A DNA stretch of 3,722 bases, taken from IMG/VR virus record IMGVR_UViG_2778261570_000023; one strand, written 5' to 3'. The notes under the pieces are model-generated. The model saw nothing but the letters and a program-made list of their open reading frames with translations, made no database searches and was not told the origin of the DNA. Source of the DNA: a virus. Lineage: Duplodnaviria > Heunggongvirae > Uroviricota > Caudoviricetes. Below are positions 1-3,306 of this stretch, in pieces (the first letter of the stretch is position 1; every line of letters starts with the position of its first letter). The position numbers and the translations under genes are program-made.

Positions 1-1242
1 ATGGCACGAAAAACCACCCCACTAACTATTACGGAGATCAAAAACGCACGACCAGGGGAAAAGGAATACACCCTGCAGGATGGTGGAGGATTATTTCTTC
101 TGGTGAAACCCTCCGGATCAAAAATCTGGCGTTTTACGTACTACCGCCCGGCAGATAAAAAACGGACTATCATCAGCCTCGGATCGCTGAATGATGTTTC
201 CCTGTCCGATGCCAGAGAACGACGGAATGAATACAGGTCACTCATAGCGAAGGGAGTTGACCCACAGGACCACGAACGCCGGAAACGTGAAGCAGAGAGT
301 CGGAAAAAGGGCAACACGTTCGAAAAAGTTGCCTCGGACTGGTACGAGATGAAAAAAGGCCAGAATCTGGCTTACAACACGATTAAGGATATCTGGCGAT
401 CCCTGGAAAAATACGTATTCCCGTACATCGGAAACACGCCAATAGATACCCTCACAGCTCGCCGCTTTGTTGAGATACTCACACCCATTAAAGCACGCGG
501 CAACCTGGAAACCCTGAAACGCGTTTTACAACGCATCAATGAAGTGATGGATTTTGCTGCCAACAGTGGGCTGATTGACATCAACACCGCCGCGAACGTC
601 CGCAAGGCATTCCCCTCACCCACCAAAAAGCACATGCCAACCATCCGACCGGAACAGCTACCGCAGCTAATGCACGATTTATCGGTCGCCAGCATAGAAC
701 GGCAAACCAGATTGCTGATTGAGTGGCAACTGCTGACCGTAGCACGCCCAGCCGAAGCAGCCGCCGCACGCTGGGAAGAAATAGATCTCGATGCCGAAAC
801 CTGGACGATTCCAGCCGGACGCATGAAGATGCGCCGTGACCACGTGATCCCCCTTTGCGGTCAGGCGATGGCTGTACTGGAAACCATGAAGCCAATCAGC
901 GCACACAGGGAACATGTTTTTCCCAGCCTTAAAAATCCAATGCTGCCAATGAGCAGCCAGACCGCTAACGCTGCATTGCGCCGGATGGGTTACGCTGGTG
1001 TGCTGGTGTCTCACGGATTACGCGCCATATTCAGTACAGCAGCGAACGAGGAAGGATTCGAGCCGGACGTAATCGAGGCCGCACTCGCACACGTGGACAC
1101 AAACGAGGTAAGGCGAGCATATAACCGAAGTAACTACCTGGAAAAGCGCGTGGTGCTTATGCGCTGGTGGGGGGAATTTGTAGAGGCCGCAGCAACCGGA
1201 GTGACCATAGCCAGCGGTAAAAGGGGTATCCGTGCCGTGTAA
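1..1242 (+). CDS. int: Site-specific tyrosine recombinase / integrase, P4 (IntA/CP4-57)-like family, 413 aa, apparently full length
   Basis: ORF spans frame 1 from an ATG at position 1 to a TAA at 1240-1242. The N-terminus (MARKT.PLT..EIK......Y.L.DG.GL.LL.K.SGSK.W.F.YYRP) recalls E. coli CP4-57 IntA and P4 Int. The C-terminal catalytic region has an R box (TVARPAE), the H-x-x-R box (HGLR, codons 1012-1023), a second His (LAHVD) and candidate catalytic Tyr in VRRAYNRSNY (Tyr codons 1120-1122 and 1135-1137). Length matches IntA (413 aa). Upstream context (int promoter, att site, tRNA) lies outside the window. Confidence 0.93.
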   Translation: MARKTTPLTITEIKNARPGEKEYTLQDGGGLFLLVKPSGSKIWRFTYYRPADKKRTIISLGSLNDVSLSDARERRNEYRSLIAKGVDPQDHERRKREAESRKKGNTFEKVASDWYEMKKGQNLAYNTIKDIWRSLEKYVFPYIGNTPIDTLTARRFVEILTPIKARGNLETLKRVLQRINEVMDFAANSGLIDINTAANVRKAFPSPTKKHMPTIRPEQLPQLMHDLSVASIERQTRLLIEWQLLTVARPAEAAAARWEEIDLDAETWTIPAGRMKMRRDHVIPLCGQAMAVLETMKPISAHREHVFPSLKNPMLPMSSQTANAALRRMGYAGVLVSHGLRAIFSTAANEEGFEPDVIEAALAHVDTNEVRRAYNRSNYLEKRVVLMRWWGEFVEAAATGVTIASGKRGIRAV

Positions 1243-1340: not shown

Positions 1341-1571
1341 ATGCAAAATACCACCGCCTACGGCGAAGGCCTGCAACTGGCCTTAATGGCAAATCGTGAA
1401 TTCTGGTCAACATACGATCCGGAAGACAAATCAACAGCCCCCACAAAACACGAGGTAGTCAGTTTTTTGCGCTCGCGTGGTGCATCGAAAAATCTGGCTG
1501 AAAGCATCGACAAGGTGCTGAGGCCCACCAGCCTTAAATGCGGTGGGCGACCTAAGAAGTGGAAACGGTAA
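1341..1571 (+). CDS. Hypothetical small basic protein, 76 aa, C-terminus GGRPKKWKR; no family recognised
   Basis: ORF from ATG 1341 to TAA 1569-1571. An intrinsic terminator begins 6 nt after the stop and a TATAAT box lies upstream. No convincing Shine-Dalgarno within 5-10 nt of the ATG (the GGAG at 1320-1323 is 17 nt away), so translation is uncertain and this could be a small RNA instead. Confidence 0.5.
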   Translation: MQNTTAYGEGLQLALMANREFWSTYDPEDKSTAPTKHEVVSFLRSRGASKNLAESIDKVLRPTSLKCGGRPKKWKR

Positions 1572-1576
1572 TCACA

Positions 1577-1606
1577 ATAGCGGCCCCTTGTGGTCGCTAT
1601 TTTTTT
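1577..1606 (+). terminator. Rho-independent terminator
   Basis: Stem 1577-1585 (ATAGCGGCC) pairs with 1592-1600 (GGTCGCTAT): 9 bp with one G-U wobble, 6-nt loop, followed directly by a T7 tract (1600-1606). Lies 6 nt past the stop of the 76-aa ORF. Confidence 0.7.
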
Positions 1607-1634
1607 GCAAAAAGAAAGCGTAATCAATGAGATA

Positions 1635-1676
1635 AAAAACAGTACCCACCGTTTAAAAAGGGTGGGTACTGTTTTT
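1635..1676. terminator. Strong bidirectional terminator-like hairpin
   Basis: Perfect inverted repeat CAGTACCCACC (1640-1650) / GGTGGGTACTG (1661-1671) with a 10-nt loop, flanked by A5 (1635-1639) and T5 (1672-1676). This gives a U-tract after the stem on either strand. Second hairpin in tandem, about 65 bp upstream of alpA. Confidence 0.6.
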
Positions 1677-1740
1677 CCCGCCCTGCCCTGTTTTACCGTA
1701 TTTATCACCGGAATACGCCGGATTAACGAGGTAAAACATA

Positions 1741-1947
1741 GTGGAAACAATCAGAAAAATACTTACCCGTCAGGAAGTAAAAAATATTCTGCGCATCAAG
1801 GCAGACAGTTCGCTACAGGACATGATCAACGCCGGAAAATTCCCGAAAGGCTTCAAAATCGGTCTGCGTCGTGTTGGCTGGTATGAAGATGAGGTGCTGG
1901 CCTGGCTGAAAGAACGCGAGGAAGAAGCGCGCGGAACGGCTGCGTAA
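1741..1947 (+). CDS. alpA: AlpA-family phage/island transcriptional regulator (excision activator-like, MerR-type HTH), 68 aa
   Basis: Translation ...ILTRQEVKNILRIKADSSLQDMINAGKFPKGFKIGLRRVGWYEDEVLAWL... fits the AlpA (Phage_AlpA) signature, including the G.FPK...G.R.VGW..EV..WL core. Start is GTG at 1741, the first start after the in-frame stop at 1732-1734, with GAGG at 1727-1730 (10-nt spacer). Stop TAA at 1945-1947. Confidence 0.82.
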   Translation: METIRKILTRQEVKNILRIKADSSLQDMINAGKFPKGFKIGLRRVGWYEDEVLAWLKEREEEARGTAA

Positions 1948-2097
1948 TGGTGTGAGGCGTAACACAATGAACATAACAAAAAGCGCCCCGTTGCCGGAGC
2001 GCCCTTGCGAACAATTAACCTGCTGCGAAAAAAATGGATCAGTGCAGGGGAATTATATCAACCGTGTGGCGAAGCGCCACAATTGCCGGATAACAGG

Positions 2098-2126
2098 CAA
2101 AGAAAAGGCCACCCGCTACGGTGGCC
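2098..2126 (-). terminator. Candidate intrinsic terminator for the minus-strand cargo operon
   Basis: GC-rich 7-bp stem GGCCACC (2107-2113) / GGTGGCC (2120-2126) with a 6-nt loop. On the minus strand it is followed by TTTTCTTTG (complement of 2098-2106). About 100 nt downstream of the stop of the 160-aa gene. No T-tract on the plus-strand side. Confidence 0.35.
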
Positions 2127-2228
2127 CTTCGACACAAGCTACACGTTATCCCCAACGCATGAGCATCACTAACAATGCCACATTTGCGGCTGGTGGGCAA
2201 AGCGTAACCGGAAAAAAATTCCGGTGGG

Positions 2229-2711
2229 CTATTTTATCTTGTGCTGTCGTAGGTAACGTCTCACACCTGGTATTTTTTCGCCAGTATCGGGGTTAATAGC
2301 TTGAATTTTTTTATCGTACAAATCTACTCTAACTATTTTCCCATGTTCGTTTTTTCCATAAACATACTCTAACTCAGGGAAATAGTGAGAGGCGTGAAGA
2401 AAATAGTTGTGTTTTAAATTTGCATATTCAAAAACTAACTTAGCATCAACACATATATATTTGTGACCGCCATGAATATCCATATAAAAATGATCTTCGT
2501 GTGTTGTTATTCGTTTTTGTTTATTAACAGGATTATCAGATGATTCCTTTCTCTCTTCATACAACTTAGCCCGTTCGGCCTCTTCTTGTGCAATTCTTCT
2601 GGATGCCTCGGCTCTAATTTTGTCGTGTGAATTTTCTGAAATAAATAATTTGGTAAGAACGTAAATGGATAAAATTACGATCGCAATGAAAATGACGAAT
2701 CCCATAATCAT
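2229..2711 (-). CDS. Membrane-anchored protein of unknown family, 160 aa: N-terminal single TM helix, charged Ala/Glu/Arg-rich linker, His/Tyr-rich C-terminal domain
   Basis: Minus-strand ORF with stop TAG at 2229-2231. Favoured start is ATG 2711-2709 (MIMGFVIFIAIVILSIYVLTKLF...), preceded by AGGAG at 2720-2716 with a 4-nt spacer; a second in-frame ATG lies at 2705-2703. The ORF track extends it to an ATG at 2759 (adds MSQPEELRLQRLHRRL), which has no SD but sits 9 nt after the upstream stop. Residues 3-22 are strongly hydrophobic. AT-rich coding sequence. Confidence 0.75.
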   Translation of the reverse strand: MIMGFVIFIAIVILSIYVLTKLFISENSHDKIRAEASRRIAQEEAERAKLYEERKESSDNPVNKQKRITTHEDHFYMDIHGGHKYICVDAKLVFEYANLKHNYFLHASHYFPELEYVYGKNEHGKIVRVDLYDKKIQAINPDTGEKIPGVRRYLRQHKIK

Positions 2712-2734
2712 TAATCTCCTATGTAATCTTTGGA

Positions 2735-2757
2735 GTCGCAACTCCTCTGGTTGCGAC
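2735..2757 (-). promoter_or_regulatory. Intergenic stem-loop between the RHH gene and the membrane-protein gene
   Basis: Perfect 8-bp inverted repeat GTCGCAAC (2735-2742) / GTTGCGAC (2750-2757) with a 7-nt loop. It lies between the RHH stop (2769-2771) and the AGGAG/ATG of the downstream gene. No U-tract follows on the minus strand, so it is not a canonical terminator. Confidence 0.3.
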
Positions 2758-2768
2758 ATTAGTGATAG

Positions 2769-2963
2769 TTATCCCTTTGGCTCAATTCCGCGCCGTAACA
2801 GTTCTTTGCGCCCTAACTCTTTAAGCCAGTTGGCAAGACTTACTCCATCGTTACTGGCTTCGTTATCAAACTGCTCCTTCAATTCAGGGACTATACGCAT
2901 ATGGAATGGTGGGGCCTTTCCTGTGCCTTTTTGTTTTTTATCGCGCTTAATAACTGTTGACAT
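2769..2963 (-). CDS. Arc/Mnt-like ribbon-helix-helix (RHH) DNA-binding protein, 64 aa, with Lys-rich N-terminal tail
   Basis: Minus-strand ORF from ATG 2963-2961 to TAA 2771-2769. Translation is MSTVIKRDKKQKGTGKAPPFHMRIVPELKEQFDNEASNDGVSLANWLKELGRKELLRRGIEPKG. The segment PPFHMRIVPELKEQFDNEASNDGVSLANWL follows the Arc/Mnt pattern (P.F..R.P.E.......A...G.S.N..L). Weak SD GGTG 6 nt upstream. The track's longer 102-aa version begins at a TTG (3077) and is not favoured. Confidence 0.7.
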   Translation of the reverse strand: MSTVIKRDKKQKGTGKAPPFHMRIVPELKEQFDNEASNDGVSLANWLKELGRKELLRRGIEPKG

Positions 2964-3022
2964 GTGTACACCTATAGCGTTATGTTTTGGTTCGTTAGGT
3001 GTACACCTTAACACGTGTACAT
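2957..3022. promoter_or_regulatory. Divergent control region with three GTGTACAC-type palindromes (putative operators) and a candidate rightward promoter
   Basis: Palindromes: GTGTACAC at 2964-2971 (overlapping the RHH start codon), a perfect 12-bp AGGTGTACACCT at 2997-3008, and a degenerate ACACGTGTACAT at 3011-3022. Centres are about 35 bp and 16 bp apart. Candidate plus-strand promoter: -35 TTGACA (2957-2962), 18-bp spacer, -10 TATGTT (2981-2986). I could not confidently place the leftward promoter. Confidence 0.4.
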
Positions 3023-3102: not shown

Positions 3103-3306
3103 ATGAGAAATCATACCACACACCCGCAAGGGCGGGACTCGCACAACCTGAATAAATATATCTGGCGTTTTATCGCCCTGAGCACGGCACAACCGCGCGT
3201 GATTACCATTGAGGCCACCAGCGAACAGGAAGCACGCCAGCAATCCCCGGCTGGCTGCGTGATGGTATTCGCCGCCCGTATTCGTCAGGAGGTGCGCCAT
3301 GATTAA
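3103..3306 (+). CDS. Small conserved island/prophage protein, 67 aa; resembles from memory the Icd-like (host cell division inhibitor-like) small proteins annotated in P4-like elements
   Basis: ATG 3103 preceded by GAGG (3094-3097, 5-nt spacer); stop TAA 3304-3306. Translation MRNHTTHPQGRDSHNLNKYIWRFIALSTAQPRVITIEATSEQEARQQSPAGCVMVFAARIRQEVRHD. The family name is recalled, not searched, so it is low confidence; that it is a real coding gene is moderately confident. Confidence 0.6.
   Translation: MRNHTTHPQGRDSHNLNKYIWRFIALSTAQPRVITIEATSEQEARQQSPAGCVMVFAARIRQEVRHD

Follow-up and report, generated by a model that had tools for sequence, protein, structure and literature searches.

A membrane-anchored protein gene on a satellite island

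We analyzed a 3,722-nucleotide (nt) stretch of viral DNA, IMG/VR record IMGVR_UViG_2778261570_000023 (here called the window), and in it a minus-strand gene, the target of this work, whose product of about 160 amino acids (aa) has a predicted N-terminal membrane anchor. Members of its family are confined to mobile elements of Enterobacterales, where they travel as accessory cargo, mostly in int-alpA-primase satellites and in fewer cases in lambdoid prophages. The window covers the left end of an ~8.5-kb island at tRNA-Pro in Escherichia coli, between yejM and yejO; in NZ_CP148507 the tRNA gene lies 210 bp upstream. In order, the island comprises the integrase, a 76-aa gene, alpA, an icd-like pseudogene, the target gene, a 64-aa ribbon-helix-helix (RHH) gene (these two on the minus strand), and an icd-like gene (Table 1), followed rightward in the RefSeq annotation by small genes, DUF4222, a DNA primase, a single-stranded DNA-binding protein, and DUF1441.

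An integrase beside a tRNA gene, AlpA together with a primase, a compact size, and no annotated structural or lysis genes mark the island as a satellite, with the gene set of a phage-inducible chromosomal island (PICI) or P4-like phage satellite. The combination of integrase, AlpA, and primase corresponds to a "Type C PICI" under published criteria (PMC10085698). Neither the P4 genes psu, delta, and sid nor PICI capsid-morphogenesis genes are annotated in locus L001, where no dedicated profiles were applied beyond the window.

The minus-strand open reading frame (ORF) ending at position 2229 was confirmed, and its translation matches that of an earlier note made from the window's sequence: a hydrophobic helix FVIFIAIVILSIYVLTKLF, a charged linker KIRAEASRRIAQEEAERAKLYEERKE, and a domain running from HEDHFYMDIHGGHKYICVD to LKHNYFLHASHYFPELEYVYGKNEHGK. 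It is more than a chance ORF because it has ~20 homologous clusters, synonymous substitutions, a confident AlphaFold model of its C-terminal domain, and a low G+C content (0.34 versus 0.49 to 0.51 in the flanks). We conclude that the target is a genuine gene under purifying selection.

The start codon had been described as ambiguous, and rightly so: RefSeq holds a 158-aa version in two genomes (WP_001306493.1) and a 176-aa version in others (WP_338933489.1), with gene coordinates of 2229-2759 in the window and 1501-1977 in both L018 and L019. Three in-frame starts are available, ATG 2759 (176 aa), ATG 2711 (160 aa), and ATG 2705 (158 aa), the first of which would prepend MSQPEELRLQRLHRRL. A Shine-Dalgarno (SD) sequence serves the two shorter forms (Table 1), and inspection of the sequence revealed nothing SD-like in front of ATG 2759. 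All homologs start at a Met 1 to 3 residues ahead of the hydrophobic helix, which is where the alignments begin, and each has a purine-rich SD 5 to 10 nt 5' of this transmembrane-proximal start. No equivalent of the 16-residue tail occurs in any of the homologs examined, and in three of them (L004, L017, and L006) an in-frame stop 1 to 6 codons 5' of the start makes an N-terminal extension impossible.

Five E. coli and IMG/VR copies of the gene were also compared. Seven distinct substitutions fall in the 160-codon body and none of them changes an amino acid, whereas both of those in the 16-codon extension do (Q to R and R to K), a difference for which Fisher's exact test, calculated by hand on these small numbers, gives about 0.03; a mismatch where contig L010 is truncated was set aside. 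The cluster representative P0001, outside the five-copy comparison, has one nonsynonymous change, A33D. Together, these sequence comparisons favor ATG 2711 or ATG 2705 over ATG 2759; the two favored starts are indistinguishable and differ by two residues. On this basis, the 176-aa RefSeq gene models should be cut to 158 to 160 aa. A hairpin in the leader was considered as a regulatory RNA and rejected, its fold energy being unexceptional (z = -1.8; 11 of 200 shuffles fold equally well).

Table 1. Features of the window (positions counted from its first letter)
Feature	Position	Strand	Remarks
Tyrosine integrase	1-1242	+	Pfam Phage_integrase, Arm-DNA-bind_3, Phage_int_M
76-aa hypothetical gene	1341-1571	+	Island backbone
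AlpA	1741-1947	+	Pfam Phage_AlpA, E 4.5e-8
Swappable cassette, 814 bp	2204-3017		Hairpin, target, RHH regulator, part of operator region
Terminator-like hairpin ACCGGAA-N5-TTCCGGT	2207-2225		Right after stop codon, within cassette
Target protein-coding gene	2229-2711	-	160 aa from ATG 2711, 158 aa from ATG 2705; stop TAG 2229-2231
C-terminal globular domain, residues 70-160	2232-2504	-	N-terminal helix (71-83), SH3-like small beta-barrel, C-terminal helix (predicted)
Most conserved segment, residues 133-160	2232-2315	-	Motif A138-x-x-P-x-T-G-E-R-I-P-G-I-K-R-Y-L-R-Q; mean top-residue frequency 0.79
Flexible low-confidence linker, residues 59-69	2505-2537	-	pLDDT <50 at residues 59-61
Charged E/R/K-rich helical spacer, residues 23-58	2538-2645	-	Moderately conserved; consensus IRxExSxxIxxxExExARxYDxRK
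N-terminal transmembrane anchor, residues 1-22, MIMGFVIFIAIVILSIYVLTKL	2646-2711	-	From hydropathy; helical in AlphaFold model
Leader from RHH stop to start, 57 nt	2712-2768	-	Includes rejected in-frame ATG 2759
Shine-Dalgarno AGGAGA	2715-2720	-	Read from sequence; AGGAG 2720-2716, 4 nt 5' of ATG 2711, 10 nt 5' of ATG 2705
8-bp hairpin in leader, GTCGCAAC-N7-GTTGCGAC	2735-2757	-	G of ATG 2759 is first stem base, 5' arm
64-aa RHH (Arc-like) regulator, WP_001306492.1	2769-2963	-	PHROG 228 Arc-like repressor, E 2.4e-5
GTGTACAC palindrome cluster, candidate operators	2964-3022		2964-2971 and 2999-3006 perfect; 3015-3022 7/8
Icd-like gene, first annotated of rightward replication operon	3103-3306	+	NCBIfam phage_ICD_like, E 1.4e-19; PHROG 6196

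Architecture, conservation, and family

The three-part layout proposed in the earlier note, an N-terminal hydrophobic anchor followed by a charged helix and a C-terminal globular domain, was borne out. The anchor has a mean Kyte-Doolittle hydropathy of 2.9 across 19 residues. By inspection, no charged n-region, cleavage motif, Cys, or lipobox indicative of a Sec signal peptide or lipoprotein was found, and the hydrophobic run is ~20 residues long. The E. coli protein has no Lys or Arg before the anchor and three within 15 residues after it. In the 12 family members analyzed, none precedes the helix and two to six fall within the next 15 residues, usually directly behind the helix (LKK, LKR, or SRK). 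Read with the positive-inside rule, this distribution suggests that the N terminus lies outside and that the C-terminal domain is probably in the cytoplasm (N-out, C-in). The periplasmic domain (N-in, C-out) that had been envisaged for the long form of the protein is disfavored, since the short start is preferred and the Lys/Arg pattern points to a cytoplasmic domain.

Behind the anchor, the AlphaFold helix runs on to residue 57 at a predicted local distance difference test score (pLDDT) of 56 to 72, and the linker that follows varies in length and sequence among homologs, with large alignment indels. The C-terminal domain is modeled at a pLDDT of 92 and a predicted template modeling score of 0.81. 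Its fold had been called unknown. This remains apt insofar as no specific relative was found, but a class can be proposed: the model predicts a generic SH3-like small beta-barrel, a superfold that includes Sm/Rpp29, Tudor, PWWP, KOW, WYL, and Rof/YaeO. In its overall layout and predicted topology the target matches ZipA-type (type Ib) bitopic proteins, in which an N-terminal anchor (N terminus outside) is joined through a charged or flexible linker to a C-terminal binding domain in the cytoplasm. One homolog, the 267-aa protein P0009 (on a Logan contig of 1,109 bp), has two tandem C-terminal domains behind a single anchor; this arrangement shows that the domain is autonomous and hints that it works in pairs.

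Conservation was assessed in an 18-sequence alignment. Residues V88, Y110, P112, G119, A138, P141, T143, E145, I147, G149, R152, L154, R155, and Q156 are invariant (18/18), and the last 28 residues have the consensus (K)EAxHPxTGERIPGIKRYLRQ. The E. coli domain is unusually rich in His and Tyr (nine of each, against two to six of each in the homologs), and from its clustered His the earlier note had suggested a metal-binding or catalytic site. None of the 11 His residues is invariant. The five His of the HEDHFYMDIHGGH cluster, carried by the domain's N-terminal helix (residues 71 to 83), are each present in one or two of the 18 sequences, while H106 (12/18) and H109 (11/18) are elsewhere substituted by R, K, L, I, or D. 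The sole Cys is found in E. coli only (1/18), the conserved Tyr are Y110 and Y153, and the domain isoelectric point spans 5.1 to 9.1 across the family. By the note's own terms, His and Tyr residues lacking conservation would refute such a site, and this is the pattern found for His; judged from the alignment, a conserved role for the histidines, and with it a metal enzyme, is not supported. The invariant polar residues are suggestive of a binding surface.

As the earlier note had it, no family could be assigned, searches of Pfam, NCBIfam, PADLOC, PHROG, and the PDB being without match. The PDB profile search returned 0 matches at E <=10, and Pfam revealed no common family among 12 members. Matches of the target in Pfam, NCBIfam, PHROGs, and PADLOC (Cytochrom_D1, HemY_N, FliL, and RinB-like) were rejected as noise far under the cut-offs; the Cytochrome D1 match, for example, scored 13.4 bits against a cut-off of 25.5 bits. 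A tblastn search of 50,697 GenBank phage records (E <=0.01) and of PLSDB plasmids gave no match. Short-peptide pattern scans of GTDB species-representative genomes and JGI metagenome contigs yielded no confirmed locus, probably owing to the rarity of the gene and the reliance on one short peptide pattern.

A word-indexed single-sequence search of 5.8 billion proteins found only the target's own cluster, and nine proteins emerged when 1.84 billion cluster representatives were scanned exhaustively with HMMER. Profile searches brought the family to ~20 clusters of 142 to 182 aa plus the 267-aa protein, with 25 to 52% identity and the same architecture. Named source organisms are E. coli, Salmonella enterica, Serratia marcescens, and another Serratia species. 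The gene is carried by 16 of 5,426 complete E. coli genomes, all copies having >=99% identity, and a pattern scan of IMG/VR yielded just two near-identical copies. One variant, P0006 (64 aa), reads after residue 52 the opposite-strand translation of a downstream segment (NSCVLNLHIQKLT; window 2401-2440), the cause being an internal inversion or else a chimeric assembly. Neither the family nor its conserved motif nor the regulator-adjacent slot described below was found in the searched libraries or the cited literature, and the paper on EcCIMP1 (PMC11773190) contains nothing on the target gene.

An interchangeable slot beside the satellite switch

The family was placed in 13 informative distinct gene contexts, 11 of which are int-alpA satellites (two E. 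coli backbones, L003, L004, L015, L016, L017, L020, L021, and L022). In these, the target lies between a convergent alpA and a divergent control region, antiparallel to alpA and to the replication operon, and the satellites carry three different replication modules: a D5-type primase, a Toprim/DUF927 primase, or an AAA_25 helicase. A small same-strand gene stands upstream in 9 of the 11 satellite contexts; the exceptions are L021 and L016, the latter with its contig ending there, for which no such gene was called. Lambdoid prophages make up the remaining two contexts; here the target is unaccompanied, on the opposite strand, and occupies a classical moron position from the late-regulator region to the Bro-N/holin genes, lying between the two.

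Comparison of the window with two related islands, L007 (ETEC1732) and L008, delimited a swappable cassette (Table 1). In blastn alignments the common backbone covers positions 1 to 2203 (L007) or 2164 (L008) and resumes at 3018 (3026 in L008), and the islands compared are otherwise 94 to 99% identical while the cassette differs. Window sequence was matched in 1,745 E. coli genomes, the region of the 64-aa RHH gene in 216, and the target in 16. In ETEC1732 the slot contains a YlcI/YnfO family gene without annotated cargo; strain E2 has a 63-aa gene there and, behind it, a gene for a SWIM zinc-finger protein. Strain A37 encodes the identical 64-aa protein, WP_001306492.1, followed by a SWIM gene in place of the target, and its nucleotide homology to the window ends exactly at the stop codon of the 64-aa gene, position 2769. 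Conversely, the target also occurs on a second island backbone with a different integrase and a BRO-N gene, and behind a second regulator, WP_032149715.1. The SWIM replacement in A37 and the other backbone and regulator therefore identify the target plus its 57-nt leader as interchangeable cargo behind the leftward gene. Given its deviant G+C content, its presence or absence among near-identical elements, and the alternative slot occupants, the target is accessory cargo, and the slot behind the regulator may be an undescribed accessory hotspot of these satellites.

Several observations accompany this comparison. The SWIM zinc finger family protein in the slot is ~117 aa long (L008 2733-3086, L011 2117-2473, and L012 2117-2473). 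No direct or inverted repeats flanking the cassette were found as insertion scars. The terminator-like hairpin behind the target has a good T-run on the plus strand and a poor one on the minus strand. An icd-like pseudogene annotated by the NCBI Prokaryotic Genome Annotation Pipeline (PGAP) as missing its C terminus (1969-2202, plus strand) lies immediately upstream of the cassette; an origin of this pseudogene in cassette insertion was considered and rejected, as it belongs to the shared backbone. The icd-like gene at 3103-3306 is intact.

The 64-aa RHH protein has no extension past its DNA-binding fold. In addition to its Arc-like assignment it has weak TraJ and HicB matches, and PGAP labels a close homolog as a HicB-family antitoxin. 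Its gene shares position and strand with members of the YlcI/YnfO family (NF041551), RHH-like proteins of cryptic lambdoid prophages and satellites, but the window's protein did not reach E 0.1 against the NCBIfam YlcI_YnfO_N model, and its relative in L008 scores 20.7 bits, under the cut-off of 30, a distant relation. An Arc-like label suits it better. In six non-E. coli satellites the small genes upstream of the target homolog align as one family; three of the six were scanned and score 58 to 74 bits against YlcI_YnfO_N, and the ETEC1732 regulator, in the same position, scores 64 bits. In ETEC1732 the YlcI/YnfO family fills the slot without annotated cargo, and we therefore regard the small gene as a regulator that belongs to the satellites themselves and is not specifically paired with the target.

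A cluster of palindromes separates the RHH gene from the divergent icd-like operon. With up to one mismatch, GTGTACAC has four matches in the window against 1.09 expected, three of them within 59 bp, and these overlap a plus-strand promoter-like site (TTGACA-18-TATGTT, 2957-2986). The palindromes are probably operators of the island switch, and we infer that this stretch is the regulatory switch of the island and that the RHH protein serves as the leftward regulator. One cassette boundary, 3017/3018, falls inside the stretch. No promoter-like site was called within the 57-nt leader of the target. A palindromic promoter-like motif, TTGATCA ... TGATATCA, lies 40 to 70 nt 5' of the homologs in L003 (~7931-7965), L004, L013, and L015; it sits between the YlcI/YnfO gene and the cargo gene, is missing from the window's cassette, and suggests that these homologs have their own regulated promoter. 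In the prophage copies a TTGTCA...TATAAA pair was read by eye upstream.

Candidate functions and other island features

In light of the strand and probable transcript that the target shares with the regulator, its dispensability, its quick turnover, and a distribution resembling that of Tai systems, whose immune function is experimentally established, we consider interference with phages at the inner membrane face, of an exclusion or abortive type, to be its most likely role, with a probability of roughly 45%. Apparently co-transcribed with the maintenance regulator, the target would be made while the island is quiescent; in conflicts of one phage with another or with a satellite, it would then serve as a superinfection-exclusion or abortive-infection-type factor. 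Its first ~20 residues would anchor it, and the charged helix and flexible linker would hold the ~90-residue SH3-like barrel in the cytoplasm, where the conserved face (Y110, D89, T143, E145, R152, R155, and Q156) could bind a phage-derived protein, peptide, or nucleic acid. The ligand, bound at the inner membrane face, might then be sequestered, or its binding might trigger membrane damage through the anchor. The more specific proposal, that the target is a single-gene anti-phage system in which a membrane-tethered cytoplasmic SH3-like domain senses a phage component, and that it marks a new cargo or immune slot of enterobacterial satellites right behind the leftward YlcI/YnfO-type regulator, is possible and is offered tentatively.

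Mobile-element accessory cargo is a well-known kind of candidate conflict gene. Satellites encode anti-phage systems (PMC10085698), and small immune genes missed by PADLOC and DefenseFinder, such as Tai, are found in PICIs, P4-like satellites, and prophage moron loci (PMC11364771). Tai systems occur in PICIs, P4-like satellites, and lambdoid phages (PMC11364771), and the target is likewise found in satellites and at prophage moron loci and is missed by PADLOC. The null tblastn search of phage records gave no sign of similarity to Tai, as an indirect test in which no Tai sequence was aligned and the presence of phage phi80, a carrier of Tai, among the records was not checked. The word "transmembrane" is absent from the text of PMC11364771, whereas the target has an N-terminal anchor. 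Like moron and other accessory cargo, the target is short and of deviant G+C content, has a hairpin after its stop, and is present or absent among near-identical elements.

Temperate phages encode inner-membrane superinfection-exclusion proteins, a type that includes HK97 gp15, P22 SieA, and T4 Imm. Like the target, these are small, mobile-element-encoded, predicted inner-membrane proteins in moron positions, probably expressed in the lysogenic or quiescent state. They differ from it in that PHROG reveals no sequence relation (E <0.019) and in that the target consists mostly of a folded, probably cytoplasmic domain.

Several points weigh against a phage-interference role. PHROG has no family under E 0.019 for the target, and PADLOC-DB v2.0.0 (5,027 models) gave no family at E <=1 for the target and four neighbors. 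The slot also differs from the immune hotspots described for PICIs, which lie at the 5' end, at the 3' end, and downstream of pri (PMC11364771). An SH3-like barrel tells little about its ligand, and the domain isoelectric points of the family span a wide range. The predicted topology has the positive-inside rule as its sole basis, and the net charge of the C-terminal flank in the E. coli protein is only about +1, a modest bias. Co-transcription with the regulator is likewise deduced from the 57-nt spacing and the lack of a called promoter-like site, and the satellite homologs in L003, L004, L013, and L015 have an apparent promoter-like motif of their own. Finally, an association with mobile-element cargo slots would fit non-defense functions too.

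Two other roles for cargo of this kind appear unlikely. The target could serve the element's own life cycle as a membrane-tethered sensor or sequesterer of a helper or island regulator or of a packaging or division protein, tuning induction, replication, or transfer. It adjoins the island's regulatory switch on the strand of the regulator, it has neighbors that are Icd-like division inhibitors, and its slot is shared by satellites with three different replication modules, all of which would suit such a role. However, it is missing from >99% of window-matching genomes, so the satellite cycle can do without it; an unrelated SWIM zinc-finger gene or no annotated cargo can take its place, and in lambdoid prophages it stands alone at a moron position without the satellite switch. 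About as improbable is lysogenic conversion, in which the target would alter host envelope physiology, stress tolerance, or colonization in ways unrelated to phage conflict. The occurrence of the target as membrane-anchored cargo on mobile elements of E. coli, Salmonella, and Serratia associated with animals and humans would fit this, and PICIs do carry accessory genes unrelated to defense (PMC11773190). Yet the conserved domain, predicted to lie in the cytoplasm, lacks invariant residues of an enzyme-like kind, Pfam and NCBIfam scans gave no similarity to known virulence or fitness factors, and extreme rarity fits the quick turnover of conflict genes better than a generally useful trait.

With an RHH gene just ahead of it in the same orientation, the target has the layout classical for a type II toxin-antitoxin module, and the HicB-family antitoxin label on a close homolog and the potential toxicity of a membrane anchor could be taken to mean that the target is the toxin of a two-gene addiction module with the RHH protein as antitoxin. 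We regard this as quite improbable. Elsewhere the identical WP_001306492.1 precedes another gene, the target itself occurs with at least three regulators (WP_001306492.1, WP_032149715.1, and YlcI/YnfO proteins), a YlcI/YnfO regulator is found without annotated downstream cargo, and the prophage copies of the target have no upstream partner. Moreover, the RHH protein, at only 64 aa, has nothing beyond its DNA-binding fold, and the target matches no toxin family in Pfam, NCBIfam, or PADLOC. Least probable is the reading of the earlier note, a periplasmic His/Tyr-rich metal-binding or catalytic domain translated from ATG 2759 in an N-in, C-out orientation. The long ORF is uninterrupted in every E. 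coli copy examined and is the one annotated by PGAP in some genomes, and the E. coli domain is indeed rich in both residues. Nevertheless, no His, Cys, or typical metal-ligand set is conserved, the Cytochrome D1 match is only noise, and the Lys/Arg distribution favors a cytoplasmic domain. ATG 2759 itself has no SD and has its G within a hairpin stem, and the extension that it would add is seen in no homolog, is impossible in three, and bears only nonsynonymous substitutions (2/2) against a body with only synonymous ones (7/7). The alignment largely refutes this reading.

Whichever role applies, the target defines a compact undescribed family with a confidently predicted domain and a reproducible slot beside the switch of several kinds of satellite. 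Satellites and prophages are turning out to be reservoirs of small immune genes that current defense-finding tools miss. If the target blocks phages, it would constitute a new single-gene system in a new hotspot, the alternative slot occupants would become candidates as well, and it could reveal a phage component that acts at the cytoplasmic membrane face; if it blocks none, it would be an ordinary orphan cargo gene.

Some further features of these islands were recorded. Salmonella satellites with a target homolog adjoin a prophage terS-like (DUF1441) gene, and a repeat of 68 to 87 nt (95 to 97% identity) is common to these satellites and the region upstream of that gene (L021, 3425-3511 versus 12114-12200; L022, 3419-3486 versus 12114-12181; also in L003 and L004). 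The repeat is possibly a shared cos site, which would be an indirect hint of helper packaging. In L003 the satellite is apparently flanked by the two halves, ATPase and nuclease, of a prophage gpA terminase gene, and between the target homolog and alpA there is a gene (8737-9357, minus strand) that encodes a 206-aa protein of no assigned family, hydrophobic in its N-terminal helix; this gene looks like another orphan cargo gene of that region. Outside the target, between the 76-aa gene and alpA of the window, a long near-perfect hairpin (1597-1678, plus strand) gives the only Rfam match, a sub-threshold one to the sRNA STnc240 (27.5 bits versus a gathering score of 55), and is probably a bidirectional terminator.

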